From contig CAWJMT010000004.1 in NCBI GenBank assembly GCA_963844035.1, positions 256,001 to 320,000 of the forward strand: DNA of 64,000 nt. Direction: 5' to 3'. The notes below the pieces were generated by a model. It searched no databases. It was not told where the DNA came from and saw only the letters and a program-made list of their open reading frames with translations. The position numbers and the translations under genes are program-made. The stretch comes from an uncultured Gemmatimonadales bacterium. GTDB lineage: Bacteria; Gemmatimonadota; Gemmatimonadetes; Gemmatimonadales; GWC2-71-9. Shown here one piece after another: positions 44,939-62,796 of this stretch (the stretch's first letter is position 1; each line of letters starts with the position of its first letter).

Positions 44939-45856
44939 ATGCCTGCCAGCGTCACCGTACGGGTCCCGGGGTCGACGGCCAATCTGGGCTCCGGATTCGA
45001 TTGCGTCGGGATCGCGGTCGAGCGGTCGGTCCAGGTTGTCGCGCGCCTCGAGGCATCGGACACGCTGGTTCGGACCACGCGCCGCGGCTCGCTCGAAGGG
45101 CTCAGCGTGCCTGCGGATAGAGATCTGCTGTATCTTGGCTTCGTCGGCGCCTGCCGGGCCGCCGGCCGGGAAGCGCCGAAGGGACTCGTCTTTGAGGTCA
45201 GTTCGGACATTCCCGTCGCCCGTGGACTGGGCTCGTCCGCAGCCGCCGTCGTCGCCGGTGCCGTGGCGGCGCGCGCCCTGTGCGAGCTCAATCTCGACGA
45301 TGCAGCACTCGCCGCCGCCTGCGCCGATATTGAAGGACATGCGGACAACGTCGCACCGTCGGTGTGGGGCGGCGCCATGCTCGTGCTGAAAACCGCCGGC
45401 GGAGATCTGCTCTTTGCCCCCCTCGAGGTGCACGAGTCTCTGGTGCTGATCTTCGCGATTCCCGACTTCACCTTGTCCACCGAGCGGGCGCGGTCCGTGC
45501 TTCCCGCCACGGTGCCGCACCGCACCGCCGTGACGGCGGCGGCGCGCTCCGCCGCGCTCGTCCAGGGGCTGGCGAATGCGAACCCGGGCTTGCTCGCGTT
45601 GGGGCTCGACGACGTGCTCCACGTGCCGCACCGACGCGTGCTGATGCGCGGGTACGACGACGTGACCAAAGCCGCCCGGTCCGCCGGCGCCTACGGCGCC
45701 ACACTCTCGGGGTCGGGCTCGACAATCGTGGCGCTTGGGTCCGCGGCAACCGCCGCCGCGGTCGAAACCGCCATGGCCACCGCCTGGCGCGCGCACCGCG
45801 TGAGCGCCACGACGTTTCACATGGCCCGCCCGGCCTCAGGATACAAGGTCGCCTGA
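44939..45856 (+). CDS. thrB: Homoserine kinase (GHMP)
   Basis: VPGSTANLGSGFD, PVARGLGSS, EGHADNV, SGSGST. Confidence 0.93.
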   Translation: MPASVTVRVPGSTANLGSGFDCVGIAVERSVQVVARLEASDTLVRTTRRGSLEGLSVPADRDLLYLGFVGACRAAGREAPKGLVFEVSSDIPVARGLGSSAAAVVAGAVAARALCELNLDDAALAAACADIEGHADNVAPSVWGGAMLVLKTAGGDLLFAPLEVHESLVLIFAIPDFTLSTERARSVLPATVPHRTAVTAAARSAALVQGLANANPGLLALGLDDVLHVPHRRVLMRGYDDVTKAARSAGAYGATLSGSGSTIVALGSAATAAAVETAMATAWRAHRVSATTFHMARPASGYKVA

Positions 45857-48371
45857 TGGTCCGACCGGCCGGCCCTCCCCAGGTTCACAAGTTCGGCGGC
45901 GCATCACTCGCCGACAGCGCCGGCATCGCGCGCGTCGTCGCCATCATCGAGGCGCAACGGCCGGCGCCGCTGGTTATCGTCGTCTCGGCGCTGGCCGGGG
46001 TCACCGATGCGCTGCTCGAGATCGCATCCAACGCAGTGCGTGGCGAGGCCGACGCGGTTCGGACGAGCGCGGCCGCTCTGCACAAGCGCCATGCGACCGT
46101 GGCCCGGGGGTTGCTCCCGGACGGGAACCGCCGGCGTGACACATTGCGTGCGATCGACGAATCGTTCGCCGAGCTGGAACAGATCGCCGCCGGCCTGGCC
46201 ATCGTGCGGGAGCTGACGCCGCGCACCAACGACTATCTCGTCGCGCGCGGGGAGCGGTTGAGCGCCCGGCTCGTGTCGGCAGCGCTCGATGAGGCCGGGT
46301 GTCCGGTGGCCCTGGTCGATGCCCTGGAGGTCATCCGTTGCGACAGCAACTTCGGCAGCGCGTCGCCCGATCTGGCGCTGACCGACCGCAGCGCGCGGCG
46401 GGTGCTCGGCCCGCTGCTCAAGCGCGGCGTCGTGGCCGTCATACCGGGGTTCATCGCCGGTACTCCAGATGGACAGCTCGCGACCCTGGGACGCGGCGGG
46501 TCGGACCTGACGGCGACCCTGCTCGGGCGCGCGCTCGGGGCGCGTGAAGTGTCGCTGTGGAAGGACGTCCCCGGGATGCTCACCGCCGATCCTCGCATGG
46601 TGCCCGACGCCCGGGTCATCCCGCAGCTTCACCTGCGGGAGGCCGCCGAGCTGGCGTACTACGGCGCGAAGGTGCTGCACCCCCGCGCCCTGATTCCGCT
46701 GGCGCGCCGGAACCTCGCGATCCGCATCCGGCCGTTCGCCGACCCTGGAGCCCGTGGGACGGAGATCTCGCGCCGGCGCACGCTGCGCTCCCACCCGGTG
46801 AAGGCCATCTCGGCGGTGAGCGGCCAGGCCCTGCTCATGGTGACCGGCAACGGCATGTTGGGCGTGCCCGGAATCGCCGCCCGGACCTTCGCCGCGGTGC
46901 ACGAAGAGGGCATTTCGGTCTCGCTCATCAGTCAGGCGTCGTCGGAGCACTCGATCTGCTTCAGCGTCCCGGAGGCGAGCGCCGAGCGGGCGCGCAAGAG
47001 TCTGGAGCGGGCGCTCCGGGAAGAGATCGCACGCCGCCAGATCGACGGCGTGGAGGTCCGCCGCAAGATCGCCACCGTCGCGGTGGTCGGGCTGGGGATG
47101 GCGGGGACACCGGGGATCGCGGCCAAGACGTTCGCCGCGCTGTCGAGCGGCAAGATCAACGTCATCGCGATCGCCCAGGGGTCCTCGGAGCTGAACCTGT
47201 CCGTCGTGGTGGACGCCGGGGAAGTCGTGCGCGCGCAGCGGCTGGTCCACACGGCATTTCAGCTCGACAAGCTCGGCGGCGGCGGAGTGGCCGGAGCGGA
47301 GCGGACCGGACGTCGTGCTGCTCGGCTTCGGGCAAATCGGGCGCATCCTCGGCGCGATGATTGCCAAGCCGCGCCGGGGCCCGCGCCAGCTCAGGGTGGT
47401 CGCCGTCATCGATCGTTCGGGATTCGTGTTCGACGCGGAGGGACTCACGCCGCGCCGGCTCGCAGGGTTGGCCGCCGCCAAGGTCAAAGGGGCCACCATC
47501 GCGAAGGCCGCCGGCGCGCGGCGCGGTACGGCGACCGAGGCGGTGGATTTTGTGGCGCGCCACGCACTCTCGAACCCGGTGCTGGTGGACGTCACCGCCG
47601 ATGACACCAGCGCCACCTTGAAGCACGCGCTCGGCGCGGGGATGCATGTCGTCCTGGCCAACAAGCGCCCACTGACCACGCACCGCAAGCTGTACGACGA
47701 GCTGCGCGCGCTTGCGGACGAGCGCGGGCGCCGGCTGCTGCACGAGACCACCGTGGGCGCCGGCCTGCCGATCATCGACACGTTCTACAAGCTCGCCGAG
47801 TCGGGCGATCGCGTCAGCAAGATCGAGGGCTGTCCCTCCGGCACGCTCGGCTTCCTGTTCGGCGAGATGGGACGGGGGCGGCCGTTCTCCGACGCGCTGC
47901 GCCGCGCGATCGCGAAGGGCTACCCCGAGCCCGACCCGCGCGAAGATCTGTCGGGCACGGACGTCGCCCGCAAAGCCCTGATCCTCGGCCGGTTGCTCGG
48001 ATTTCCGGGCGAGATGGGCGACATCGAGGTCGAGTCGCTCGTGCCGCCGAAGGGGAAACGCCTGCCGCTGAAGGAGTTCCTGGCACGGCTCGAGGAGTAC
48101 GATGCCGAGTGGCAGACAGCGCGTGCAGCAGGCCCGCGAGCGCGGCGGCGTGCTGCGCTACCGCTGCACCGTGACCCCACGGCGCATTCGCGTAGGCCTC
48201 GTGGCGGTAGCTGCCACCAGCCCGCTCGCCTCGCTCAACGGCACCGACAACCAGTTCATTTTCACGACGGAGCGCTACAAGGCGAATCCGCTGGTGATCA
48301 CCGGACCGGGCGCCGGCCCTGCCGTCACGGCGGGCGGGATTTTGAACGACGTCCTGAAGCTCGCCGGCTGA
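45856..48371 (+). CDS. thrA: Bifunctional aspartokinase / homoserine dehydrogenase (frameshifts near 47300 and 48115)
   Basis: HKFGGASL, TLGRGGSD, two ACT domains, GFGQIG, ANKRP, ETTVGAGLP, EPDPREDLSG, GPGAGPAVTA. Confidence 0.9.
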
Positions 48372-49679
48372 TGAGCGCCCCTCCCTCAGAACTCCGGCAC
48401 GCCAGCCTGCAGATCTGCGCGGCGTGCGGAGCGCAGCTGGCCGAGACCGATCGCCGGTCGCAGTGCCCGGAGTGCGGTGGACTGCTCGAGATCCGGCACG
48501 AACCGCCCAGTGTGACCGGGGCCGCGCTGCGCGCGCTGCTCGACACCCGTTCCGGCATCCGGCGGGGCGCGTTTGCGTCCGGCGTGTGGCGCTATCGCGA
48601 CCTCGTCCTGCCGAGCGTCACCGACGAGCAAGTCGTGACGTATCCCGAAGGAAACACACCGCTGCTCGATCGCCCGACGGTATCGGCGTGGGCCGGCGCG
48701 GGGAGCTTGCTGCTCAAGCACGAGGGACTCAATCCCACCGGTTCATTCAAGGACCGCGGGATGACGGTCGGCGTGACGCACGCGAGGCGCCTCGGCGTCA
48801 CCGCGGTCGCCTGCGCCTCGACGGGGAACACCGGCGCGTCGCTCGCCGCGTACGCCGCGCTCGCGGGGATCACGGCTCTCACGATCGTGCCGAAGGGCAA
48901 GGTCGCCCGCGGCAAGCTCACGCAGCTCTTGGCGTATGGCGCGCGCACGCTGGTGGTGCGGGGCGATTTCGATACCTGCCTGGAGCTGGCCTGGGAGGCG
49001 AACAAGGAGCTGGGAGTCTATCTCCTCAACTCGGTGAATCCATTTCGCCTCGAGGGGCAGAAGACCATCGTCCTGGAGCTGCTCCAGCAACTTGGGTGGG
49101 ACCCGCCCGACTGGATCCTCGTACCGGCGGGCAACCTCGGCAACACCGCCGCGTTCGGGAAGGCGCTGCGGGAAGCGCATGGCCTGGGGCTGATCGCGCG
49201 GATGCCGCGCATCGCGGCCGTGCAGGCCGCCGGCGCGGCGCCGTTCGCGCGCAGCTTTGAGGAGGGGTTCGCCCGGCAGGCACCGCGTGGAAGCGCACAC
49301 CGTCGCCACGGCCATCAGCATCGGCAACCCGGCGTCGTACGACCGGGCGGTCACGGCCATCCGCGAGACCAACGGCGTGGTCACCGCCGTGGGCGACGAC
49401 GAAATCCTGGAGGCGAAGGCGGTGGTGGATGCATCGGGGGCGGGCTGCGAGCCCGCGAGCGCGGCGAGCGTCGCCGGCGCGCGGCAGCTGATTCGCAAAG
49501 GGGTGATCCGGCCCTCCGACCGGCTGGTCGCGGTCCTCACCGGGCACATCCTCAAGGACCCCGACGCGGTCACCCGCTACCACGAGGAGACCACGCCACC
49601 GCTGCCGTACGCGAATCACACGATCGAAATCGATCCCAAGCTTTCGGAAATCGAACGCGTGCTGGCGCGCGGGCGCTGA
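48371..49679 (+). CDS. thrC: Threonine synthase with N-terminal Zn ribbon (frameshift near 49275)
   Basis: CAAC..CPEC, EGNTP, NPTGSFKDRG, CASTGNT, EGQKT, CEPASA, LTGHILKDP. Confidence 0.92.
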
Positions 49680-49688
49680 CGGCCGCCG

Positions 49689-50543
49689 TCAGCGCTCGAG
49701 AATCAACTCCTTGGCGCGCTGGCTCGCTTTCGCCACGGCCTTGATCAACGTCACCCGCAGCTTCCCCTCTTCCAGCTCCATGATCCCGTCGATGGTGCAG
49801 CCGGCCGGTGTGGTGACGGCGTCCCGCAGCAACGCGGGGTGATCACCGGTTTCGAGCGCCACGGTCGCGGCGCCGAGCAGCGTCTGCGCGGCAAGCAGCA
49901 TGGCGGTGTCGCGCGCGAGCCCGGCTTTGACCCCGCCTTCCGCCAGGGACTCGAGAATGATGTACACGAACGCGGGCCCGCTTGCCGACAGACCTGTCAC
50001 GGCATCCATGTCCTTCTCTTCCACGAGGACGGTCCTGCCCACGGTGTCGAAGAACAGCTGGGCCGTCTCGAGGTGGTTCTGCGTGGCGTATTTCCCTTTG
50101 CACAGCCCCGTCATCCCGGCGCCGACCACGCAGGGCGTGTTGGGCATCGCCCGCACCACGGGGATCGGCGCCTTGAGGATCTCTTCCATGTACGCGGTCG
50201 GCACGGAGGCGGCCACCGAGACGATCAGCTTCTCGGGCGTCACCTCGGGCCGGATCTCCTCGAGCACCGCGCGGACCGCCTGCGGCTTGACGCACAGCAG
50301 GATCACGTCCGCCTGGGCCGCCGCCGCGCGGTTGTCGGTACCGACCGGGATCGCCAGCTGAGTGCTGAGCGCGCGCACGCGCTCCGGACGCCGCACGGTG
50401 GGGAACGCGCGCTCCGGAGAGAGGCCGGCTTTCAGCAGCCCCTGAAGGAGAATGCCGCCGATCTTCCCGGTGCCGAGCACGGCGATGCGGCGCTCGAGCA
50501 GTCGTTGTGGTGCGGCGGATGGCTTGGGCGATGGCTTGGGCAT
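49689..50543 (-). CDS. proC: Pyrroline-5-carboxylate reductase
   Basis: GTGKIG, CVKPQ, RAMPNTP, SASGPAF, VTTPAGCT. Confidence 0.94.
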   Translation of the reverse strand: MPKPSPKPSAAPQRLLERRIAVLGTGKIGGILLQGLLKAGLSPERAFPTVRRPERVRALSTQLAIPVGTDNRAAAAQADVILLCVKPQAVRAVLEEIRPEVTPEKLIVSVAASVPTAYMEEILKAPIPVVRAMPNTPCVVGAGMTGLCKGKYATQNHLETAQLFFDTVGRTVLVEEKDMDAVTGLSASGPAFVYIILESLAEGGVKAGLARDTAMLLAAQTLLGAATVALETGDHPALLRDAVTTPAGCTIDGIMELEEGKLRVTLIKAVAKASQRAKELILER

Positions 50544-50597
50544 AGCGGGCCTTTCGAGTAGCCTGTAATGTCACCGGCCACTGGTGAGGAGGGAAGT

Positions 50598-51230
50598 GTG
50601 AGCATCGCACGACCGGGGAAGATCGTCTGCGTCGGCCGAAACTACGTCGAGCATGCGGCGGAGCTCGGGAACACCGTGCCCAAGCAACCGCTGCTGTTTT
50701 TCAAGCCGCCGTCCGCCGTCATCGGGAACGGCGACGCCATCGTCCTTCCTCCCGAATCGGTGCAGGTCGAGTACGAGGGGGAAATCGGCCTGGTGATCGG
50801 CCGCCCCCTGCGCCGGGCCACGGAAGCCCAGGCCCGGGCTGCCATCGCCGGGATCACCTGCGTGAACGACGTCACCGCCCGCGACCTGCAGCGCAGCGAC
50901 GAGCAGTGGACGCGCGCCAAGGGGTTCGACACGTTCTGCCCGATCGGCCCGCGGGTCGTGCCGGTGAACACCGCGCAGCTCACGCAGCTAGAAGTGCGGT
51001 GCCTGGTGAACGGGGTCGAGCGCCAGCATGGACGGGCACGGGACATGGTGTTCGGGTTTCTGGCCCTTGTAGCCTACATCTCCCAGGTCATGACTCTCGA
51101 ACCGGGAGATTTGATCGCGACCGGGACGCCGTCAGGGGTCGGTCCGCTGCACGCCGGGGACGTTGTGGAGGTGGAAATTCCCGGCGTTGGTGTGCTCCGC
51201 AATCCGGTGGTGGCGGCCAAAGGCGCGTGA
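50598..51230 (+). CDS. Fumarylacetoacetate hydrolase family protein
   Basis: GRNYVEH, FKP, YEGE, NDVTARDLQ, KGFDTFCP, TGTP.GVG. Confidence 0.92.
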   Translation: MSIARPGKIVCVGRNYVEHAAELGNTVPKQPLLFFKPPSAVIGNGDAIVLPPESVQVEYEGEIGLVIGRPLRRATEAQARAAIAGITCVNDVTARDLQRSDEQWTRAKGFDTFCPIGPRVVPVNTAQLTQLEVRCLVNGVERQHGRARDMVFGFLALVAYISQVMTLEPGDLIATGTPSGVGPLHAGDVVEVEIPGVGVLRNPVVAAKGA

Positions 51231-51318
51231 CCCCTCCCTAAAGGCCAATCGCGATCGCGGTGCGCGAGGCGACAATTCGAGGTACGTTTTTTCGACCATC
51301 CTGGGAAGAGAGGGGCAT

Positions 51319-51774
51319 ATGCACGTCGTGATCCAACGGTACCGGGTTCGACTGGGGGTAGTCGCGGATGCGGCGCGCTACGCTGACAAGTGGTTCGTGC
51401 CGCTACTCCGGGAGATCCCCGGGTTTGGGGCCTGCTTCCTCATGGACGCCGGGAGCGGCGTCCTAGGATCAATCGGCGTGTTCGAGACTCCGGAAGGAGC
51501 CGAGGCTGCGTCCCGGCTGGCTCATGAATGGTTCAGCAAGGAATGGGGGTCGTTCCGCCCCCTCCCGCCCGAGGTGATCACCGGGGAAGTGCTGGCCCCC
51601 GTGGCTGCCACCGGCCAGGGACGGCGGTGGATCGCTGACCGGCGTCACACCACGTTGCGCCTCGGCGCCGGGGCACCCAACGTTGTCGAGCGTCGCGTCG
51701 GTGGCGATCGGCGGCAGGGCTTCGATCGCCGCGCGGACCTCGTACGTCTGTTCGAACATCAAGCGGTAGGGTAG
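51319..51774 (+). CDS. Hypothetical: ABM-like domain plus DRR/ERR repeat tail
   Basis: VPLLREIPGF; tail ADRR..ERRVGGDRRQGFDRR. Confidence 0.6.
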   Translation: MHVVIQRYRVRLGVVADAARYADKWFVPLLREIPGFGACFLMDAGSGVLGSIGVFETPEGAEAASRLAHEWFSKEWGSFRPLPPEVITGEVLAPVAATGQGRRWIADRRHTTLRLGAGAPNVVERRVGGDRRQGFDRRADLVRLFEHQAVG

Positions 51775-51818
51775 AGCGCTCCAAGAGGCAGTCTGACAGG
51801 CAGTGTGTTCGGGGGCCC

Positions 51819-52316
51819 TCAGGTTCCGGTCGCGCCCCCGATCACGGCACGCATCGAATCCACCACGGCGTGCACACTCCCAATGTGCCGCCACAGCAGG
51901 CGTCCGTCCTGCCCGACCACGAACGTCTCCGGTACGCCGATCAACTGAAACGCGTCTTCGACGCGCGCTTCCGGATCGTGCGCGACCGTGAACGTGAGCT
52001 TCTCCTCGTCGGCAAACCGCTGCACCCGCGAGCGGTCACCCGCATCCACACTCACAGCCACCACCTGGACGCCGCGCGACGCGAACTCCTTCTGAAGAGC
52101 GTTGAGGTCGGCCATCTCCTCGCGACAGGACGTACACCAGGTCGCCCACACGCTCAGCACCGTCACCCGGCCGGGGCCGCCCAGCCGCACGGTGTCACCC
52201 GCCAGGGTCGCGACGGCATACGCGCGAATCGGCTGGCCGACGGCCAGCGGACGGAATTCCCCACCACCGCCGCATGCCGTGGCGGCCAAAACCAACAGCG
52301 CGGTCCTCCGCGTCAC
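51819..52316 (-). CDS. TlpA-like thiol-disulfide reductase lipoprotein
   Basis: ATAC lipobox; WATWCTSCREE; GVPETF. Confidence 0.9.
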   Translation of the reverse strand: MTRRTALLVLAATACGGGGEFRPLAVGQPIRAYAVATLAGDTVRLGGPGRVTVLSVWATWCTSCREEMADLNALQKEFASRGVQVVAVSVDAGDRSRVQRFADEEKLTFTVAHDPEARVEDAFQLIGVPETFVVGQDGRLLWRHIGSVHAVVDSMRAVIGGATGT

Positions 52317-53593
52317 AGAATGCGCCCGCGGCGCACTACCACTTGGGCAGTGCCGACCGCCTTGAGACCCATGGGCATGCCTTTGGGCATCGTGGCTTTC
52401 ATCTCGTGCTTAGGCTTCGCGGTCGAGGCGCTCTGCTCCGACCACGCGAGCGTGATCGTGGAATCGGTCAGGGCCAGGACCGGGAACTGCGCGGCCCGGC
52501 CGGGCCCGCTCGCCGGCTCGCTCGGTCCGAAGGTCGTGCCGCCGTCGCGCGAGATGCGCACGACGACCCGCGGCACCTCCCTCGTGCCATCGTCCCAGGC
52601 CACCACAACTTCTCCGCGCGATCCGAGAGCCATTTGCACGTGGGCCGGCTGCGAGTACTTGGCGACGCCGAGCGCAACCGGCGGCGTGAAGGTGCTCCCG
52701 CCATCCGGCGAGCGAGCATAATAGACACCGGCGGCCCCCTCCTTACCGACCCACCAGGCAACGTGGAGCTGGTTCGAACGATCGATTTGGATGGACGGGC
52801 CGGCGTGCGGGCATCCGGGATACACCCAGTCATCGGCGTGGACCCGAGTGGGCGCCGTCCACGTCACCCCGCCGTCGCTCGAGCGCGCCACGACGATATC
52901 GCGCACGTCACCCGGGAGAACGGCGCGCCATGCGACAAACAGCGCCCCCTCCGGCGTGGTCGCGATCGCGGTGCGGCAGCAGGGACACGCCTCGCCTGTC
53001 CCGACCCGCCGGTTCGGCTCCCAGGTCTTGCCGCCGTCCCTCGAGCGGGTCAGAAACGGCGCGGCTTTGCCCTCGCGATCGTCCAGCCAGGAGATGTAGA
53101 GCGAGCCATCCGCCGCCGCATGCAGCGCGTGGAAGTTGTGCCTCCTGCCGAACGCTTCATCATCCGTGACGGTCACGGGCCTGCTCCACGTGCTCCCCCC
53201 ATCGATGGAGCGGACGTAGCGGAGGGCGGCGACGCCGTAGCGCTTCCCGGCGGCCAACCTGGGGACAGCGTAGATCGCGTTGAGCGCGCCGTCCGGGCCG
53301 TACGCCAGTTTGGGCGGCGACTCGCCGTGCGGCTCGACGGGACCCAGCGGATCGCGCAGCTCCACCGGGTCGGCCCCACCGACGGAGACGTACAGCCGAC
53401 CGTCGGTCCCGCTATCCGGGGCGGATACCCACGCTAAGGCCTGAGTCCCCGTGGCCGACACCGCAAACATCGGAGCGGTGCCGACCGGGGTAGCCGTGCC
53501 GACCTGCCCTTCCGCCGTGAAATGGACGGCGGGTCCACGGTTGCACCCGCCGACCACGACGATCACTGCGAGCACTGTCGCTCTGCGGCTCAT
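52313..53593 (-). CDS. BNR/Asp-box (sialidase-fold) lipoprotein with Cys motifs
   Basis: VGGC lipobox; SxDGGxTW repeats; ACPCCR; GCPHAGP; Met-rich tail. Confidence 0.85.
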   Translation of the reverse strand: MSRRATVLAVIVVVGGCNRGPAVHFTAEGQVGTATPVGTAPMFAVSATGTQALAWVSAPDSGTDGRLYVSVGGADPVELRDPLGPVEPHGESPPKLAYGPDGALNAIYAVPRLAAGKRYGVAALRYVRSIDGGSTWSRPVTVTDDEAFGRRHNFHALHAAADGSLYISWLDDREGKAAPFLTRSRDGGKTWEPNRRVGTGEACPCCRTAIATTPEGALFVAWRAVLPGDVRDIVVARSSDGGVTWTAPTRVHADDWVYPGCPHAGPSIQIDRSNQLHVAWWVGKEGAAGVYYARSPDGGSTFTPPVALGVAKYSQPAHVQMALGSRGEVVVAWDDGTREVPRVVVRISRDGGTTFGPSEPASGPGRAAQFPVLALTDSTITLAWSEQSASTAKPKHEMKATMPKGMPMGLKAVGTAQVVVRRGRIL

Positions 53594-53606
53594 GCGTCCC
53601 CGCTTC

Positions 53607-56049
53607 CTAGAATTGCCACCGGAGACCTGCCGTAAATGCACGCCCCATTCCCAGCGTCTGGGACGCGGCGTTGGTCGTCGCATTGTCCGAATATTGGACG
53701 TCGGTCAGGTTCACGCCCGCGGCATACACATTGAGCTGCCTGCCGAGCTGATACGATGTACTGAAATTGATCAACGTGAAGGCCGGCTGTGGAATGGTGT
53801 GGTTCACGTCGAGATACATCGAGCCGGAGTGGCGCAGTCCGGCGTAGGTGCTCCACCGCGACGTGACGTTCCAGGTCACGCCGGCCGTGACAAGGTCCTG
53901 CGGTATGGCGCCGAGCTGCGCGTCGATCGGGATCGCCCGTGGTGGTGGCCGTGTAGTGACTGTCGGTGTAGGTGTAGGCCCCGTCGACGGTCAGGAACCG
54001 CGTCAGGTGGAAGGCGCCGACCAGCTCGACTCCGACAGCCTTCGCGTCCTGCCCGTTGGTGTTGAAATTCACGGTGGCCGGGCAGTTCGAGAGTGTCGGG
54101 CCGCAGATCGCGATCACCGCGGGCGGTGCCGCCGCCGCATTCGGTACCCGGTATGACGTGATCAGCGCCTTCGTGTTGCCCTGAAACACCGTGGCGCCGA
54201 AGCCGGACGGCCCGCGTTGTGAAATCCACTCCAAATTCGCCACCGGTCAGGGTCGAGGGCGACAGCTCCGGATTGGCGATGGTGATGGAGGTCGCCGACG
54301 AGAACGACCGGTACAGGTTATTGAGACCCGGCGCGCGGAACGACTTGTACACCGCGCCCCGCGCCGAGAAATGCTGGTTGAAGTCGTAGCGCACCGACAG
54401 GTTGGGATCGAACGTCCCCAGGTGTGAGTCGGCAACCGGTCCCCCGGTGGTCGGGTCGGGCGCGCCGTTCGAGTACCTGGTCATCTCGGCGACTCCATGC
54501 TGGTTCACCCAATAGTCGTACCGGACGCTCATGGTGACTGACGAGCGGTCTGACCGGAACGACCCTGACCTGGCTGAACACCCCGACGAACTGCTGTTGC
54601 CCCTTGCCGAAGTTGATGCGGTTGATCGTTGTCGACGAGCCATCGGTGGTGGTTGGCCTGATTGTAGGTCCAGGCCGAGTCCTGGCCGCCGACCATCCGG
54701 TAGTCGACGCCCCCCTGAACGCTCGCCAGAAAGCCCTTGAAATCCGCGGACGAGATGATCGCCGAGCCTCCCAGCTCGTGGTACGGGCTCTCGTCGTGCG
54801 AGTTCGCGTATTGGACCAGCGGCGCCGTGACCGACGTCGTGTTGCAGTTGGTCGCGGATTCGAGGTAACACGCTGCTCCGTTGCTCTTGTCGAAGTTCAG
54901 GTACTGCGTCCACAGCCTGAGGTCCACGCGGGAACCCCCGCCGAAGACCTTACTCAGCCCGGCTGCCGCATCCGGGCTCTTCTGCAAGTTTGTCCCGTAC
55001 TCATACCCACCGATGAGCTCGTTCTGCTGATGGTACCCCGCGCGCAGGAAGGCGTTGACGTCCGGGGTTGGCGCGTAGTACGCCGCGACCTGCACGTTCC
55101 CGTTGGTGGCCGACGACGCCGACTTGCCGGGCACCGTGTTGAGATACGCTGAAGGAGTCGTCTGGTAGCCGTCGGTGCTGAGCACGTCACCGGAGACCCG
55201 AAGCGACAAACTCTTGCTCGCCACGAAGTTCTTCGACAGCGCCGGGGTGGTCGTGCTCAGCGAGCCGTAGTTCACGTTGACCTCGCCGCCGTTGTCAATC
55301 GGTTTCTTGGTGATGATGTTGATGACGCCTCCCATGGCGAGGTTGCCCCAGAGGCTCGAATTGCCACCGCGAACCACTTCGACACGCTCGATCGCCGAGA
55401 GCGGCACCTTGAACCACTGCGTCGTGCCAAAGAAGGGATCGTGGACGGGAATCCCGTCCACGAGAACGAGCACCGAGCTATTGCTGGTCAGCCCGCGCAG
55501 CTTCGTCTGGTGGCCGGTGGGATCGGTCGTGTAGAACGGCGCCCCGGACATGTTCATGCCCGACACCCCGCGCAGCAGCTGGTCGAGCGTCTGTGCCGGG
55601 GACTTTTGCAGATCCTCATGGTCGATTACGGTCGCGTGCAACGGCATGCGCTCGAGCGTCGTCGTGGTGCGTGTGGCCGACACGACGACCGTCCCCAGCT
55701 GCACCGCCCCCAACGCAAAGTCGGCCCGGACGCTCCCGCCGGCTGGGACGGTCACGGTGAGCCGCACCGGCTCACGGCCGACATAGCGAGCGACGACGAC
55801 CGCCGGGCCCGCCGGCACCTCGGTGATCCGGAAGGCGCCGTGCGCATCGGTCACCGCGGAGCGGCTGGTCCCTTCAACCAGCACCCTCACCCCGGCCAGC
55901 GGCTCACCGGTACCGTCGATGACCTTCCCCTCGACCGAGCCGACGGTCTGCGTGGGCACGGTCACGCTGTCCTGGGCGCGCGCGTTGCCGGCCAGCATCG
56001 CGCATGCCAAGAGCGCGAGTGACACATGATCCTCGACCCACTGCCGCAT
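53607..56049 (-). CDS. TonB-dependent receptor with N-terminal CarboxypepD-like domain (multiple frameshifts)
   Basis: VVVSATR, LVLVDGIP, IERVEVVRG..SSLWG..AMGGVINIIT, SFRAPGLNNLYR, ends GLRWQF. Confidence 0.88.
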
Positions 56050-56165
56050 GCAAGCATCCCCCACCGAGAGTGTTGGTGACTGATGGATCGTGAATTGCCG
56101 GGTGACAGCCGCGACGAGGCGGCGGTCGAGAATCCCCGACTACTCAGGAACGACTGTTGGGAGGG

Positions 56166-56526
56166 CTAGGCTCGAGGAGGCGGAGTTGCGAACTCGGGTG
56201 TGGCGGACAACAGCGGCACTGAGGACATCGACATGCACGTCTACGACAACGAAATCAATGGCAGGAGTCGCCGGCAATTGCGGCAGCACGCAGGCGGCCA
56301 CCAGGAGATCCGGCATCCCGCAATGCTCCGGGGCCGAGATCTTGGCTCCGGGTGTGTGATGCCCTGTCTGGCGATGCTCGGCTCCCATGGCGTGGTGCTC
56401 ATGGGTCGGCATCTCGGTCCCCATCAGGCAGTATGCCGCGCATGACACCGCGTTCGCGGTGGCTACGGGCATCCAAGCCAGAAGGAGGAACAGGCCGCCA
56501 GCGCGGCGCAGCAGGGGGCGAGTCAT
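56166..56526 (-). CDS. DUF2946-like (CruR/CutF-like) Cys/His-rich leader protein ending TPPPRA* after one-base correction
   Basis: Signal-like N-terminus, CAAYC, His/Met-rich segment; shifted frame gives SATPEFATPPPRA* (TAG 56166-68). Confidence 0.7.
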
Positions 56527-56594
56527 TGGATTAGTCAGCGTCCGATATTACCCCAAGCGCACGTCGAAGGGCAAGCCGGAGCGCTCGCATGACG

Positions 56595-58663
56595 CTACAG
56601 GCCCCAGCCCAGCCCGATTCGCACCTGGCGGGGCTCGACCGGGTGAAAATGGATATCGTCAACGCCGGCCGCCGGTTCACCGTCGAGGCGGGACGTATAG
56701 TAGTAGGCGATGTCGTTCGCGACCTGGTCGAAGATGTTCAATACCGATACGTGGATTCGCAGCCCGCGCACCGCATATCCCACCTCGCCGTTGACGAGGT
56801 TCGTCGGTGTCGCGCGGACGCTGTTGTCCTCGATCAGCGGATACGTTCCGAAGTGTCGCAGCCGAAGCGACGCGAACATGCCGCGCGGCGCCGAACTCCA
56901 GGTGATTCCCGATGCCACGACATTCTCGAGGCGCCCGGGAATGTGATCCTCGTTCGCCGGACACACCGCTAAACCGCGCCTGGGCAAACGACACGTCCGC
57001 GTCGAGCGCCAGCTGCGGAATCGGGCGGTAGAAGTTCGCCCACGTCACCCCACGGCGCCGGCTGGCGGACGCGGGCTCCGTCGTCCCACCGTCCCCGATG
57101 AACAGCAACTCGCTGTCGAGATTCAGAGCCCAAACCGAAAGCGTGGAATGCCAGCCCCGGCGAGGCGTAGCCCGGATGCCGATCTCGGCACCATGCGAGC
57201 GCACCAGCGGATCAACCCGCGGCGCCGGCATGCCCGTGCTGGGATCGATCGTGATAGTCGTCCCGCGGGCGTCGTTGCTGTGAAACCCGAGTCCACCGCT
57301 CACGATACACCTCGGCCGCGGGGGACGGGGTGAAGATCAACGAGGCCTTGGGGCTCACGATGCCGGCGTTGCGATGCCCGGAGTTGACGGCGAGGTCGCT
57401 CGCTACGTCGAAGGAGTACCCGTCACCACGAACTCCCAAGCACGGTGCGGAACCACGGCCGCCATCGCGACGTCGCCTGGACAAACAGGCCGACGGCCGA
57501 CTCCCGGACCTCGTCCTCCCGCACGGTGCCCGACCGCACTCTGGCTACCGTGCGGTACAGGCCGACCGGGCTGAGGATGTCGTAACGAGTTTGCAGCCCA
57601 ACAGTCAGACACATGTGACGCACCGAGCGCGTCCACCTGCTGCGTCTGCGTGGCTTTCCCGCCGAGTACCAGGCGACTCTCGCGCTGATTGAACTGGTCG
57701 CCGCTCGTCGTGTCGCTCAGCCGGTACTCGAAGTTCGAGAAGAGGCTGAGGTCGGATCGAATGCCGAACAGCTGGACCTGCTGCAGCGACCGCGCGCCAC
57801 GTGTGGCTCCACGAGCCCGAGAGACTGTAGCGCCCCGTACTACCGCCGTCCGTGGGGTCGACGTGCCCGAACCGGCTGATCAAGCCGCCTTCGACCGCCC
57901 GCAAGGGGATCTGATCGGTCGCATTCCATTGGTTGTGGTACGCCATGCCAAGGATCGAGAACTGCGACGATCCCCGTTCCCACGAGTAGCGGGTGACCCC
58001 ACTCAGCTTGCGCAGCTGCTCGGGGATCTCCCAAGGACCGTTGTAGCCCTTCACCTCGCCGGCAACCAGCAGATCGCCGCCTCCCGCCCGCGCCGACGCG
58101 CCCGCCGCAAGGCGCGCCATCCCGTTCTCCCCGACTGTCGTGGTGGCGAAGGGCCGGCTCAGCAAACGGGCCAGGTGGTACTCGGCGGCGCCGGCGCTTC
58201 CGAAATCTCCAACCTCGGCGTGATACACACCGAGCCGATAGTCGAGATAGTCCACCAACTCGGGGATGAGAAAGTTCAGATCGGTGTAGCCCTGGCCATG
58301 GGCGTGCGTCGGCATGTTCAGGGGCATGCCGTCGAGCGTCGTCTGGAAGTCGGTGCCGTGATCGAGATTGAACCCGCGCACGAAGTACTGGTTGGCTTTG
58401 CCGTCCCCGGAGTGCTGCGTGACGATCACGCCGGGCACGGTCTCCTGCAGCTCTCCCTCGCGAGCGATCGGTCGCAGCCGGAGGTCGGCGGCTCCCACTC
58501 GTCCTTCCGACGCGGTCGCGGCGGTGCCGATGAGGTTGTCGGAGCGCCCCGTCACGACAACCGCTGGAAGCACGACCGTCTTGGCGGAGTCCTCCTGGGA
58601 GCGCGCCGGGACGGCCGCGAGGGTGCTGGCGGCAGCGGCGATGAGACAGCAGCGGCGGATCAT
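56595..58663 (-). CDS. TonB-dependent receptor, HSGDGKANQYF family (multiple frameshifts)
   Basis: TQHSGDGKANQYFVRGFNLDHGTDF, HAHGQGY.D, GFHSNDARG, DIHFHPVEPR. Confidence 0.88.
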
Positions 58664-58722
58664 GACACGCAAATTGCCTCATGAGGCGTCAATGTGGAAC
58701 GGGACCGAACCGGCGGCCTCCG

Positions 58723-58731
58723 TGCTATAAT
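58723..58731 (+). promoter_or_regulatory. Extended -10 promoter (TGcTATAAT) for the SCO operon
   Basis: 9 nt upstream of the GTG at 58741; no SD. Confidence 0.6.
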
Positions 58732-58740
58732 TCCGAACCT

Positions 58741-59382
58741 GTGTTCCATCATCGAGCGATTCTCTCCCTGTGCGCAATGGCCGTTCTCGGGTCGGCCTGC
58801 CGAGGCACGACCACCAAGGTCGTGCGGGCGGGTGAATACAAGGGCGACGTCATCGTCCAACCGATCCCCGCACCCGATTTCACCCTCACTACCACCGACG
58901 GCCAGCCCTACCACTTCAGGCAGGAAACGAACGGCATGCTCGGCCTGCTGTTCTTCGGCTACACCCACTGCCCGGACATCTGCCCGGTGCACATGGCCAA
59001 CCTGGCGGCCGTGCTGCGGCGGCTACCCACCGAAGTTTCCCGCAAGGTGAAGGTGGTGTTCGTCACAGTGGACCCGGCGCGCGACACGCCGCAGGAGCTG
59101 CGCGCCTGGCTCGACAACTTCGATCGCTCGTTCGTAGGCCTGCGGGGCCCGCTCGACCAGGTGAACAAGATCCAGAACGACTTCAAAATGCCCGCCACCG
59201 TGTTCGAGAAGCTTCCCGACGGCGGCTACGCGGTCGGGCACGGGGCCCCGGTGATCGCGGTGATCGCCGACTCGGCGCGCGTTTTCTATCCCTTCGGCAT
59301 CCGGCAGGAGGATTGGCTGCACGACCTGCCGAAGCTCGTCGCGACCGTCCCCGTCCCCAGCGCGCGGGGGGGCGCCGACTGA
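58741..59382 (+). CDS. SCO1/SenC copper chaperone lipoprotein
   Basis: LGSAC lipobox; FFGYTHCPDICP; TVDPARDT; YAVGH. Confidence 0.93.
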   Translation: MFHHRAILSLCAMAVLGSACRGTTTKVVRAGEYKGDVIVQPIPAPDFTLTTTDGQPYHFRQETNGMLGLLFFGYTHCPDICPVHMANLAAVLRRLPTEVSRKVKVVFVTVDPARDTPQELRAWLDNFDRSFVGLRGPLDQVNKIQNDFKMPATVFEKLPDGGYAVGHGAPVIAVIADSARVFYPFGIRQEDWLHDLPKLVATVPVPSARGGAD

Positions 59383-60224
59383 TGCAGTGGTGGTGTTCGG
59401 CGCAGGGAGTGCCGTGGACCTGGGAGTGGCGTCCCTACCTGGGCGTGTGGCTGCTGGTTGCGCTGATCGCCATGGCCTACCGGCGCACCTATCGGGCCAT
59501 CCCGGCCCCCGCCGATCCCGACGCCCGCAAACTGCGCCAATGGCGCGCGGCGGCGGCCGCGTCGGGGATCGCAGGGGTATGGCTGCTGCTCGACTGGCCG
59601 ATCGGCGCACTCGGGGCCGGTTACCTCGCGAGCGTGCACACCGTGCAATTCATCGGTCTCGGCCTGGCGTTGCCGCCGTTGCTGCTGTTCGGGCTTCCCG
59701 AAGGCTGGGAAGCGACGCGCGGGGCCCGATTGAGCTCGATCCTCTCGCAGGTGACGAACCCCCTCACCGCAATCGTCGGATTCACCGTCATCGTGTTCCT
59801 CACCCACCTGCCACCGATCGTGGACGCCTTGATGGTGACGCAGGTCGGCTCGTTTGTCCTCGATCTCGCGTGGCTGGTCGGCGGCCTCGCGTTTTGGTGG
59901 CCCGTCGTGCGGCGCTGGCCGCAGCCGGCGCTGGGGCCGGCAGCGCGGCTCGCGTATGTGCTCGCAGGCACCGCGGCGCGGATGGGGATCGGCATGTTCA
60001 TGGGCCTGGCACCGTTCCCGCTCAATCGCGTGTTCGAGCTTGCGCCGCCGATCAACGGGATCGATGCGTTCGAGGACCAGCAGCGCGCCGGCGGGCTGAT
60101 GATGTTCGGCGACGTCCTCGTGGGCCTCGCCGGCGTCGCGATCCTCATCTACATCTGGCAACGCGACGAGCATGAGCGGCTGGCGAAGGCAGCGAGGGAT
60201 ACGGTCGGTCGTGAGGTAGTCTGA
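59382..60224 (+). CDS. Cytochrome caa3 oxidase assembly factor (Caa3_CtaG family)
   Basis: LDWPIG..YLASVH, PPLLL.G, THLP, FWWPV, DQQRAG.LM. Confidence 0.85.
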   Translation: MQWWCSAQGVPWTWEWRPYLGVWLLVALIAMAYRRTYRAIPAPADPDARKLRQWRAAAAASGIAGVWLLLDWPIGALGAGYLASVHTVQFIGLGLALPPLLLFGLPEGWEATRGARLSSILSQVTNPLTAIVGFTVIVFLTHLPPIVDALMVTQVGSFVLDLAWLVGGLAFWWPVVRRWPQPALGPAARLAYVLAGTAARMGIGMFMGLAPFPLNRVFELAPPINGIDAFEDQQRAGGLMMFGDVLVGLAGVAILIYIWQRDEHERLAKAARDTVGREVV

Positions 60225-60559
60225 GCGCTGCGCGGACCGTTGGCGCGGTCGCGCTGTTCCTGACGGCAGCTCTTGGGACGGCGTGTCGCGCAAAGCCGGA
60301 GCAAATCACCCGCCGTTACGACCTGCACGGCACGGTCGTCGCCGTCAACCGGGCCAGCGGCAATCTCGTCGTGAAGCACGACGACATACCCGGGTACATG
60401 TCGTCGATGACCATGCCCTACCGCGCGGCCAATCCCCAGGACCTCACCTTCCTCGAGAACGGCGACGAGATCCGCGCCGAGCTCCTCGTGACCATCGAGG
60501 GCGCAGCGCGTCTCGAGCACATCAGGGTCGTGCAGCACGCGAAGACCGCACCGCGATAG
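60225..60559 (+). CDS. CusF-like copper-binding protein (5' end uncertain, probable indel)
   Basis: YDLHGTVVAV..VVKHDDIPGYMSSMTMPY..GDEI. Confidence 0.75.
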
Positions 60560-62000
60560 CCGTTCGCACCACCGCCCACATCAGCGCGAACCAGCCGCTC
60601 AGCGTGATCGCCCACCCGATCCCCGGCTGGAAAAGCCGCATGATCCGCAAGTAAGACTGGAACGCCAGCGGAAGGCCCACCAGCAGAAGTACTCCCAGGA
60701 CCAGACCGCCGAGCGCCGGCAACACAATGCGCAGTGTGCGGGCGCGCCCGGTGCCCGGCCGCGTGGCCGGCAGCGCGCTCCAGCGCCGGAAGCGACGCAG
60801 CGAGAAGACCGCGGACGCGACCTGAAGAAACGGCAGCGACAGGAACACCGCGAGCATACCTGCAAAGATCAGCGGAAACGTGATCGGGACCGGCGGCCGG
60901 CCCATGACCATGCGCGCGACATTCACCGCGGCGTCCTGAACGTGACCCTCCGCCGCGACGCCGTTGGCGTTGGCGAGCAGCGCCACGCCCCATCCGCTGT
61001 CGGGCAACAAGATGAAGCGGGAGAGGAACGCCGGCACCGAGCCGGCGATCTCGAGCGTCTTGACCCCGTCGATGTCCTGGATGACGAACCCCAGCGCCAG
61101 GTCGGTGCCAGGCACGATGTTCCCCCGCGGCGTGTGCATCTCCGCGACAACGCGGGGCGAGAGCGCGGGCCGCCCCGCATACCGCCCCTGACCGAGCTGC
61201 GCCGCGAGGTAGTGTCCCACGTCTTCGGCGCTGGAGATCAGGTATCCGGCGGCCAGGTCGCCGCGGTTCGCCGGCTGCACCGTCGCGATCGGCACGCCAA
61301 ACATCACCCGGTAGCCGGTCGACAGCCCGTCCCGCTCCGCGTCGGCACGCTCGGTGTGCGTGTGGTGCATCTCCAGCGGCTCGAACACCCGCGTGCGCAT
61401 GTACGCCGCGTACGGCATCCCGCTCGCGGCCTCGATCACGAGCCCCAGGGTCGTGTAGTTCGCATTGCTGTACTGGAAGCCGCGCACCGGCTTCACACTC
61501 CCGAGCCGTCGAACGTGCCGCACGGCGGCTGCGGCACTCGTATCGGGGTCGTCCAGCCAGTACTCGCCCGCGCGCCCAGGAATCCCGCCGGAATGCATCA
61601 TCACCTGGCGGACGGTGATGCCGCGCGAGAACGCCGTGTCGGCCAGGGTGAACCAGGGGAGATAGCGCTGGACCGGGGCGTCAAGATCGATGCGCCCTTC
61701 CTCCGCCAGCTGGAGAATCGCGAGCGCGGTGAAGCTCTTGGTGGTGGAGCCGAGATAGAACGGCGTGGCCGCCGTCACCTTGCGGCCGGTGCGATCGGCG
61801 ACGCCGAATCCGCGCGCGTGCACCACCCGGTCTCCCTTCACGATCACGAGCGCCCCGCCCGGCACCCCGCCCTGCCTGAACTGGTCCTCGATCATACTGT
61901 CGATTGCAGCAAACTCGGATTGCGCGCGGAGCGGGCCGGCGAACGCCAGCACCGCTATACATGCGCGGAAGCAACTCGAGACTGCGTGACGCCTGTTCAT
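60522..62000 (-). CDS. Serine hydrolase (beta-lactamase class C / PBP fold) with C-terminal TM helices
   Basis: Signal peptide; GSTTKSFT (SxxK), YSNANY; three C-terminal hydrophobic helices. Confidence 0.88.
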   Translation of the reverse strand: MNRRHAVSSCFRACIAVLAFAGPLRAQSEFAAIDSMIEDQFRQGGVPGGALVIVKGDRVVHARGFGVADRTGRKVTAATPFYLGSTTKSFTALAILQLAEEGRIDLDAPVQRYLPWFTLADTAFSRGITVRQVMMHSGGIPGRAGEYWLDDPDTSAAAAVRHVRRLGSVKPVRGFQYSNANYTTLGLVIEAASGMPYAAYMRTRVFEPLEMHHTHTERADAERDGLSTGYRVMFGVPIATVQPANRGDLAAGYLISSAEDVGHYLAAQLGQGRYAGRPALSPRVVAEMHTPRGNIVPGTDLALGFVIQDIDGVKTLEIAGSVPAFLSRFILLPDSGWGVALLANANGVAAEGHVQDAAVNVARMVMGRPPVPITFPLIFAGMLAVFLSLPFLQVASAVFSLRRFRRWSALPATRPGTGRARTLRIVLPALGGLVLGVLLLVGLPLAFQSYLRIMRLFQPGIGWAITLSGWFALMWAVVRTAIAVRSSRAARP

Positions 62001-62062
62001 GGATTCGCCCCGTATGAGTGTGAAGTGCATGGAGCGAATCAAGCGCTGCGACATGAGATGGT

Positions 62063-62105
62063 GGTGAACGTTGTGGCGAAGCGGGCTGGTTCTGGGGTGA
62101 ACCGC
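62063..62105 (-). promoter_or_regulatory. LytTR-type direct repeats
   Basis: GCGGTTCACC, CCGCTTCGCC (21 bp period), AACGTTCACC upstream of the serine hydrolase. Confidence 0.55.
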
Positions 62106-62106
62106 G

Positions 62107-62796
62107 CTACCCTCGCGGCAGTCGGTCGCGGTACTTCTGGCCGATCGGCAGCTCAGTGCCGTCCTGCAGCACCACGGCGTGGTCGCCGAGCCCCAGGTTG
62201 CGAACCTCTTTGATGCGCTCGAAGCGCACCATGGCGGAGCGGTGGATGCGGACGAAGTGTTTGGGGTCGAGCGTCGCTTCCAGCGTGGTGAGGGTCTCGC
62301 GCACCAGGTGCTGCTGCTGGCCGACGTGCAGGCAGGCGTAGTTGTCGCGCGCTTCGATCCAGTCGATCGCACCGGTTTCAACGAACACGGTCCGTTTGCC
62401 CAACGTCACCGCGATGCGTTCGAGGTAGCCGCCGCGCTGCTGCAACGCCGCCCGCGCGCGGCCCACCGCCTTGGCCAGCCGGCCATCGTCATACGGCTTG
62501 AGAAGGTAGTCGCCGGCGGCGCGATCGAAGGCGCGCACCGCGTGCTCCGCCTGCCCCGTCACAAACACCACGAATGGCGCCGGCGTGACGTTCATCGTGT
62601 CGAGCACATGAAAGCCGTCGAGGCCCGGCATCTGCACATCGAGAAACACGAGGTCCGGCTTGAGGCCGCGGATGGCGCGGAGCGCCTCTTCGGCGGTCTC
62701 GCTCTCGCCCAGGATGTCGACGTCGGGGTGGTCGGCGAGCATGGTCCGCAGGCGCTGCCGCGCCAGCGGCTCGTCGTCAACGATCAGCGCGCGCAC
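62107..62796 (-). CDS. LytTR family response regulator
   Basis: IVDDEPLAR, FLDVQMP, DYLLKP, FVRIHRS. Confidence 0.93.
   Translation of the reverse strand: MRALIVDDEPLARQRLRTMLADHPDVDILGESETAEEALRAIRGLKPDLVFLDVQMPGLDGFHVLDTMNVTPAPFVVFVTGQAEHAVRAFDRAAGDYLLKPYDDGRLAKAVGRARAALQQRGGYLERIAVTLGKRTVFVETGAIDWIEARDNYACLHVGQQQHLVRETLTTLEATLDPKHFVRIHRSAMVRFERIKEVRNLGLGDHAVVLQDGTELPIGQKYRDRLPRG

Follow-up and report, generated by a model that had tools for sequence, protein, structure and literature searches.

The DNA studied here, which we call the window, is a 64,000-nucleotide stretch from an uncultured Gemmatimonadales bacterium (G000:C4:256001-320000, in a genome that is 84% complete). On its reverse strand, a short upstream open reading frame (uORF) heads a run of genes for a TonB-dependent receptor, a beta-propeller protein that databases label "sialidase family protein", and a TlpA-like thiol-disulfide oxidoreductase. 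The explanation that we find best, and to which we give about an even chance, is that the uORF encodes an arrest leader of the copper type, which would control an uptake operon made of the receptor, the propeller and TlpA. Bacterial copper acquisition is described as poorly mapped (PMC12914433), and the locus is a candidate copper-import module. Its parts, all on the reverse strand, are the following.

56166..56526, reverse: CutF-like leader uORF of about 119 amino acids, read across a frameshift (frame correction and homologs)
56217..56243, reverse: zone of a one-base frameshift, likely an assembly error (substitutions and homolog alignment scores)
56172..56178, reverse: predicted anti-Shine-Dalgarno sequence within the Pro-Pro-Arg codons, paired over 7 bp with 56036-56030 both as a duplex and in the minimum-energy fold
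56026..56165, reverse: structured intergenic region with the receptor ribosome-binding site at 56036-56030 (RNA folding)
53607..56025, reverse: TonB-dependent receptor with an N-terminal carboxypeptidase-regulatory-like domain, in five frames (profiles and an orthologue), with an inferred start
52313..53593, reverse: predicted lipoprotein, an Asp-box beta-propeller of seven blades whose CxCC and CP motifs are near-invariant (profiles and model)
51819..52316, reverse: TlpA/ResA-like thiol-disulfide oxidoreductase with WCxxC (profiles), whose start overlaps the propeller stop codon

A broader proposal is offered tentatively, as a conjecture that may well fail: seven-bladed propellers with CxCC/CP, which number at least 1,054 proteins and carry sialidase labels, may be unrecognised copper-handling partners of TonB receptors, under interchangeable arrest leaders in at least three phyla. 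These leaders would be mostly invisible to Pfam and mostly without the RAPP arginine, and their stall codons would form a co-evolving anti-Shine-Dalgarno switch. The locus gives grounds to re-annotate a large "sialidase" family and widens control of the CutF/CruR type to include leaders missed by Pfam. The anti-Shine-Dalgarno sequence predicted within the stall codons could reveal how a single leader design acts in opposite senses on importers and on detoxifiers.

A hidden leader

An earlier sequence-only reading described the open reading frame (ORF) that starts at 56526 as a stalling leader with an export-like N-terminus, a CxxxC motif and a His/Met-rich stretch, and all three are found. The N-terminus, judged by eye, has a basic n-region, a hydrophobic core and Ala-x-Ala, all of them conserved; the CxxxC motif is at residues 29-33, and the His/Met-rich stretch, Cys70 and a PPPR tail complete the protein, with Cys70 lying 46 residues before the final Pro-Pro. 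That tail is invisible in the ORF as assembled. The same reading proposed that one extra base near 56210-56230 hides a 13-residue ending, PPPR-Ala-stop, in the adjacent frame: the ending is there, with its stop codon at 56168-56166, and the break is displaced to the likelier interval 56243-56217.

If the tail were an illusion, homologs should lack it. The leader search covered 301 family-level genomes and matched 21 of them at E 0.01. Among the 23 loci found in other genomes, 11 were inspected: five hold intact homologs (from three genomes), two are truncated, two are leaders of another type and two are spurious. The five intact homologs have 118-122 amino acids, all head TonB receptors, and all end in Pro-Pro-Pro-Arg-x-stop. 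A one-base frame correction anywhere in 56243-56208 yields a protein of 119 amino acids, and raises the summed alignment score against these five from 666 to 938-969. We also compared substitutions in related contigs, using the 24 of 40 listed substitutions that fall within the leader. At 56181-56214, all six are silent in the frame of the tail and none of the six in the frame of the ORF; at 56290-56359, most are silent in the frame of the ORF. From the silent substitutions and the homolog scores together, it follows that the tail frame is the one that evolved, and that the break lies at about 56243-56217.

This PPPR subtype is narrow, since its profile matched only two of 301 order-level genomes, the window's own included. 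With a profile built from 28 leaders, the window's own genome gave no further leader, and a metagenome scan with the leader gave no match.

Leader class

The reading had also likened the leader to the DUF2946/CruR family, of which it is not a formal member. In two scans the assembled ORF scores 15.9 and 15.1 bits against PF11162, whose gathering cut-off is 23.7; none of the five intact homologs of the same type matches, two of nine other leaders reach 13-15 bits, and CxxxC with PPPR stands in place of CXXC with RAPP. What survives is a hidden leader, probably of the arrest type, to which CutF is a better fit than CruR.

In CruR, CXXC and RAPP are 45 residues apart (PMC9426467). CutF has a CxxxC motif and ends in GPPPRL; its stalling in copper is described as freeing a hidden Shine-Dalgarno site, in a model that invokes disulfides (bioRxiv 2025.02.05.636593). 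The published rule for CutF-like proteins calls for fewer than 150 amino acids, Pro-Pro in the last 15 residues, a gene on the same strand within 1,000 nucleotides and an N-terminal Sec signal peptide (PMC9973294). The frame-corrected leader has 119 amino acids, Pro-Pro near its end, a receptor gene downstream and a putative signal peptide, judged by eye. It also shares the operon feature of DUF2946 leaders, being the first gene, with a long gap before the receptor (116-140 nucleotides; the median is 93 in 25 loci). The gap is 140 nucleotides when measured to the GTG codon at 56025 and 116 to the ATG codon at 56049.

The spacing of 46 residues is provided by the single Cys70, not by the Cys pair; four of the five homologs of the same type have 47. 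The nearest conserved Cys is 46-49 residues from the final Pro-Pro in 30 of 32 leaders, two of which have an extra, nearer Cys. An Arg two residues before Pro-Pro is found in none of 31 Gemmatimonadota leaders.

As they are described, three known systems bear comparison. With CutF of Rhodobacter capsulatus (cutFOG; PMC9973294, bioRxiv 10.1101/2025.02.05.636593) the leader shares a small exported uORF, the CxxxC motif and the C-terminal PPPR, along with a stall that frees a hidden Shine-Dalgarno site, described there and predicted here. However, the cargo of CutF is a multicopper oxidase instead of an importer and a propeller; its stem-loop is described as intergenic, whereas here the anti-Shine-Dalgarno sequence is predicted in the stall codons; and our CxxxC lies about 85 residues from the tail, leaving a single Cys at the CutF/CruR distance. 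CruR of Bordetella pertussis (Bp2923, DUF2946/PF11162, cruR-crtA-crpH; PMC9426467, PMC12914433, PMC12992588) is likewise the first gene before a TonB receptor, followed by a long intergenic region, with a Cys to Pro-Pro spacing of about 46-48 and AhpC/TSA genes among the neighbours of its family. Unlike CruR, our leader has no CXXC at that position, no RAPP, and a score under the PF11162 cut-off; the partner of CruR is PepSY_TM instead of a propeller, and CruR acts through Rho, whereas the evidence here points to masking of the Shine-Dalgarno site. Finally, the arrest peptides of the SecM type, whose stall melts an mRNA helix that masks the next gene's ribosome-binding site, sense secretion force and control Sec genes (bioRxiv 2025.02.05.636593); our leader instead carries ligands of a metal type.

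We predict that the leader works like CutF and CruR without formal membership in DUF2946, and hold control by arrest very probable.

A conserved layout

Downstream of the leader, the co-oriented TonB receptor, the BNR protein with CPCC, CPH and a lipobox-like Cys, and the thioredoxin-fold protein announced by the sequence-only reading are all present. The plug domain of the receptor scores 86.6 bits. As regards kinship with the CrtA family of copper receptors (PMC12914433), the best matches among solved structures are generic (PhuR and Cir, 65 bits). The oxidoreductase scores 79 bits for AhpC-TSA and 74 bits for Redoxin, and falls below the TlpA and ResA equivalog cut-offs.

Searched with a propeller profile at E 1e-40, five candidates being scored per genome, 301 class-level genomes gave matches in 27. 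We examined 34 loci: 26 have a receptor directly upstream and room beyond it, two are at a contig edge, and six have no receptor by our rule. All 26 receptor-propeller loci with upstream sequence, two of which are near-copies, have a Cys/His-rich ORF ending in Pro-Pro ahead of the receptor, with leader ends located by a positional rule; in the window's own genome, the background for this rule is 14 of 423 long genes. The predicted synteny of leader, receptor and propeller is kept in these 26 loci. TlpA, counted as a part of the operon in the same prediction, is present in the window and turns out to be accessory: it directly follows the propeller in 11 of the 26 loci (once as a fusion), does not in 14, and one locus is cut off. 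Its WCxxC motif is invariant (11 of 11).

The 26 leaders of this survey form another subtype, ending in Leu-Pro...Ala/Gly-Pro-Pro without the RAPP arginine. A Verrucomicrobia genome (L076) has the same layout, and so has Ralstonia; the Ralstonia leader is a genuine member of DUF2946 (PF11162, 48.3 bits), its last gene is weakly AhpC/TSA-like, and its receptor is only 23% identical across 341 residues. When genome contigs were scanned with the propeller, most of the matches were generic Asp-box proteins, and only two of 76 loci (L076-L151) had CxCC..CP; a scan with the receptor alignment gave four loci, three of them near-copies of loci already in the set.

Leaders appear to be exchanged. The receptor and propeller of the window are 68-72% identical to those of operons from the same genus (L031-L033) that have a different leader type, and the closest relatives of its leader head unrelated receptors in another genus. 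In one clade of these operons (L036, L038, L157, L159 and L160), which has no TlpA, the genes directly upstream of the leader are MsrPQ-like; the tree is a quick version, from which L039 dropped out.

We found no relevant paper linking a BNR or sialidase cargo to copper and TonB, in a search whose coverage left subscription journals largely outside. The words BNR and sialidase do not occur in the main texts, as far as available, of PMC9426467, bioRxiv 2022.11.11.516240, PMC12914433 and PMC12992588, nor in three supplementary files of PMC9426467. In this literature the cargo set of receptor and propeller is uncharacterised, and the leader would be a further form of the CutF/CruR kind of regulator.

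Predicted pairing of the stall codons with the receptor start

The RNA analysis covers 25 loci. Of the 26 operons, 18 were used, two near-copies and six whose starts were unclear being dropped; to these come the five homologs of the same type, Ralstonia and the window. The stalled ribosome is assumed to have the last Pro-Pro placed so that its first Pro occupies the P site, as in the toeprint described for CruR (PMC12992588), with a footprint of 32 nucleotides.

Removing the footprint eases the opening of the receptor start site by a mean of 4.0 kcal/mol, versus 0.2 in shuffled sequences (20 of the 25 loci); a first version of the test gave 3.2 versus 0.4. The duplex between footprint and start site has a mean energy of -19.5 kcal/mol for cognate pairs and -15.5 for non-cognate pairs, a difference attained by none of 100,000 permutations and unchanged after pruning to 18 loci. 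A control taken 60 nucleotides upstream shows no cognate preference (-15.8 versus -15.1). Of 31 leaders, 13 use CCT for the first Pro, versus 63 of 1031 Pro codons in receptors and 30 of 281 other Pro codons in leaders. The excess of C over G in the intergenic regions, a point of interest for a Rho mechanism, is slight. Cognate pairing, footprint tests and CCT bias lead us to predict that, across the family, a stall turns on translation of the receptor.

In the window, the Shine-Dalgarno site at 56036-56030 has its predicted partner in the Pro-Pro-Arg codons at 56178-56172, at -21.4 kcal/mol, rank 5 of 25. Several points speak against such a switch. For the GTG start, which we infer from the homologous Shine-Dalgarno-GTG arrangement in L031/L032, the footprint test yields -0.1 kcal/mol, and 56 of 100 shuffles are as high: the gain is cancelled by a second complementary, anti-Shine-Dalgarno stretch in the intergenic region. 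For the ATG start it yields +3.0, with 14 of 100 shuffles as high. Starts were picked by eye, the stall site is an assumption, and kinship among the loci inflates all the RNA statistics. By itself the window is ambiguous, and the prediction rests on the family.

A proposed model for copper control

Assuming that the leader is an arrest peptide, we propose the following sequence of events. The leader, to judge by its N-terminus, would be exported during translation. At the last prolines the ribosome would stall, with Cys70 lying about 46 residues upstream, as far away as in CruR. While stalled, it would sit over the anti-Shine-Dalgarno codons, leaving the receptor start site free and the operon on; this step is a family-wide prediction, on which the window is ambiguous. 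Copper bound to the Cys and His residues would release the pause, the helix would form again, and import would be turned off, a direction suggested by the logic of an importer and by CruR. The receptor would import copper or a copper chelate; the propeller would hold this cargo through the Cys and His residues of its top face, in the manner of BtuG and BtuB, and TlpA would keep the propeller thiols reduced. It is rather probable, on this analysis, that the operon is on in copper shortage.

Copper itself is suggested by the neighbours. A divergent SCO1/SenC gene with a CtaG-like gene lies 2.2 kb upstream of the locus. In G091, the same leader subtype heads a series of receptor, unknown gene, CopC/CopD and DUF1775 (YcnI); genes of the CopC/CopD/YcnI type are uptake genes. 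MbnP or a multicopper oxidase adjoins two other loci. Copper-oxidase (copper-resistance) clusters on Roseobacter plasmids (L153, L154 and L155) contain or adjoin members of a sister propeller subfamily (CxCCQ, CPVN), and two of these clusters have a CutF/CopL-like leader at their head.

Other observations weigh against copper, or against the direction proposed. The Roseobacter propellers form a subfamily of their own on a long branch, and no receptor goes with them. Our scan of neighbours covered 20 operon loci (93 of 105 candidate ORFs from 23 loci, 12 having been dropped as operon genes): a copper-named Pfam neighbour is found at only three of the 20, one being the uninformative Cu-oxidase_4, and MsrPQ-like genes are found at five. 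The receptor does not reach the copper receptor model TIGR01778 (OprC; cut-off 472 bits); at E 1e-8 its intact orthologue L031 is not among the matches, and the Ralstonia receptor has 54 bits. And the PPPR tail is that of CutF, which copper switches on. On the strength of SCO/CtaG, CopCD/YcnI and the DUF2946 copy in Ralstonia, we still regard copper as fairly probable.

A rival reading has the same switch work with the opposite logic. Copper would induce the stall and turn the operon on, and the role of the propeller and TlpA would be to bind copper out of harm's way or to mend the damage that it does in the envelope. CxxxC and PPPR match CutF, whose stall in copper is described as freeing its hidden Shine-Dalgarno site (bioRxiv 2025.02.05.636593), and the Roseobacter sister propellers sit in copper-resistance operons headed by a CutF/CopL-like leader. 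However, the first cargo gene here is an energy-driven importer; the leader subtype heads, in G091, the genes of the uptake type mentioned above; and CruR, which also precedes a receptor, is described as repressed by copper (PMC9426467). We consider this logic unlikely, while counting it as the rival that survives best.

Less likely again, the leader could sense the thiol-redox state of the envelope through disulfides between its Cys residues, and the operon could serve redox repair or the uptake of redox or sulfur compounds. TlpA at 11 of 26 loci, a CcdA/DsbD-TM gene in one, and the MsrPQ-like genes beside five of 20 are in agreement with it; the CutF model itself invokes disulfides (bioRxiv 2025.02.05.636593), and RAPP uORFs are described as preceding DsbA and thioredoxin genes (PMC12992588). 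But the His-rich linkers suggest a metal, the loci next to MsrPQ are a single clade, and 14 of the 26 loci have no TlpA after the propeller.

We give slightly less credit still to a leader that senses nickel, cobalt or zinc, or to a receptor and propeller that take up a cobamide or another organometallic cofactor as BtuB and BtuG do. His-rich CutF-like leaders are described at the head of nickel and cobalt genes (bioRxiv 2022.11.11.516240), BtuG2 is a seven-bladed lipoprotein forming a lid on its receptor (PMC10404256), and our receptor scores 108-123 bits on TIGR01779, far under the cut-off. Yet the leaders have conserved Cys besides His, and nickel, cobalt and B12 genes do not recur among the neighbours, which include one nickel-insertion gene. 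BtuG is absent from the 50 matches listed in the fold search, which leaves a likeness to BtuG possible.

Assembly error or decay

The receptor of the window is read in five successive frames, with four shifts; its pieces are 65-77% identical to an intact orthologue and contain no stop within the matched parts. Since the adjacent receptor has four such shifts, an assembly error is likely in the leader too, and we hold it highly probable, from the sequence, that the frameshift there is such an error and not decay. The thrC gene is also split over two frames. At 54542, 54661, 57305 and 57438 the window has extra bases that are missing from contigs of related organisms; across the leader break, the contig of a relative has six gaps with a net of zero, which count neither for nor against the indel.

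The alternative is a real cluster of decaying pseudogenes in this genome, intact in relatives. Five shifts in 3 kb would suit it, as would an intact rpoB on another contig. Among the sequencing runs searched for this genome, the best shares 0.12 of its words and no RNA run is listed, so that the indel is deduced by comparison with relatives and not from the genome's own reads; these points leave room for decay. Genome G002 holds what looks like a deletion remnant of this operon, in which a leader of the same type, cut down to its first 44 codons, directly precedes TlpA, 70% identical to the window's (L177:7154-7806 in G002:C48). The density of long ORFs did not mark contig C4 as worse than other contigs. 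But the absence of in-frame stops, the even identity of the receptor pieces, and the fact that the housekeeping thrC and a second receptor are broken likewise make decay very improbable.

A further leader lies after the remnant in L177, at the end of the contig.

The propeller

The propeller scores 57.3 bits for BNR_2 and 32 bits for BNR, and has Asp-box repeats. Names attached to it in the ESM Atlas are automatic "sialidase/BNR" labels only. At least 1,054 homologs were found at E 1e-20 among the 7,996 candidates scored, and the close ones are assigned by their sources to Gemmatimonadales or Gemmatimonadaceae. The structural model has a pLDDT of 93, with seven blades counted from the strand list; to judge by strand order, its conserved motifs of His and Cys, placed in the loops that lead into the first strand of each of blades 2-6, would lie on one face. 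Its best structural matches are CylK (Z 34.2, root-mean-square deviation 4.0, 343 residues aligned) and PLL lectins (Z about 30); the sialidase NanA reaches 23.3, and Foldseek places sialidases at a TM of about 0.5, with 13-17% identity.

CxCC followed by CP is found in 77 of 79 distant full-length homologs. Counting Met as residue 2, the residues C204, C206, C207, C262, P263, R224, R232 and W257 are kept in 96-99% of these 79, while H90, H264 and H319 are not universal. The Met-rich motif noted by the sequence-only reading exists and is specific to the clade: the last 50 amino acids contain a mean of 2.8 Met in 120 close homologs and 0.9 in 77 distant ones. Because a lipobox-like Cys is found in just 38 of 77 distant homologs, many propellers may be periplasmic and not surface lids. 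Propeller-TlpA fusions exist (L039, P0130 and P0204); a predicted complex of the two proteins has a score of 0.02, which counts neither way.

A GH33 sialidase has an (F/Y)RIP motif on a six-bladed propeller. With GH33 sialidases and BNR Asp-box proteins ours shares Asp-box repeats and the beta-propeller fold, and differs from them in its seven predicted blades, its near-invariant CxCC/CP, and the absence of any RIP motif in its sequence. The claim that it is no glycosidase holds up in this sense: sialidase activity is unlikely. Metal binding is plausible, and the Cys residues could instead form structural disulfides; a role in handling a metal or its chelate has, in our judgment, slightly the better of the argument. 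BtuG, encoded with the receptor BtuB in Bacteroides and described as a seven-bladed propeller lipoprotein (PMC10404256), is a precedent in layout, but it binds B12, and a sequence link to the propeller of the window is not apparent.

A glycan hydrolase or lyase in a small sugar-uptake operon, with an incidental leader, can draw on the Asp-boxes and the 57 bits for BNR_2, on fold neighbours that include lectins and enzymes of the GH145/PL42 type (Z 27-30), and on conserved residues that could bind an acidic sugar (R224, R232 and D233), but the missing RIP, the four near-invariant Cys, a NanA score well under that of the top hit, the absence of any glycoside hydrolase among the 93 neighbour ORFs scanned, and a Cys/His leader at 26 of 26 loci make it the least credible rival.

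Other features of the window

The surroundings of the operon contain the following elements.

56545..56574, reverse: possible promoter of the sigma-70 type, two hexamers with an 18-nucleotide spacer, seen by eye 18 nucleotides 5' of the leader start; weak
56595..58672, reverse: second TonB-dependent receptor, also frameshifted, ending 69 nucleotides before the leader (context)
58681..60224, forward: SCO1/SenC copper chaperone and CtaG-like cytochrome oxidase assembly factor, divergent (context; PF02630, 112 bits)

Given this possible promoter, the 5' untranslated region of the leader would be very short; similar hexamers are found at the same place in L177 and L052. A promoter-scan tool reported no promoter above its threshold, and the candidate falls below it. 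No Rfam family matched in 50000-61000, and no credible terminator was found. The CtaG-like gene has 41 bits for TIGR02737, below the cut-off of 279.

The N-terminal part of the second receptor has no solved relative. At 60522-63881, a serine-hydrolase/beta-lactamase-like ORF lies, by eye, beside a two-component pair of the LytTR type. The region of aspartokinase/homoserine dehydrogenase and thrC, at 45364-49744, is broken into several frames. Outside the window, at G000:C4:410000-455565, the G+C content drops to 25-29%, compared with about 68% before, a sign that the assembly may contain a chimeric join or a contaminant there.

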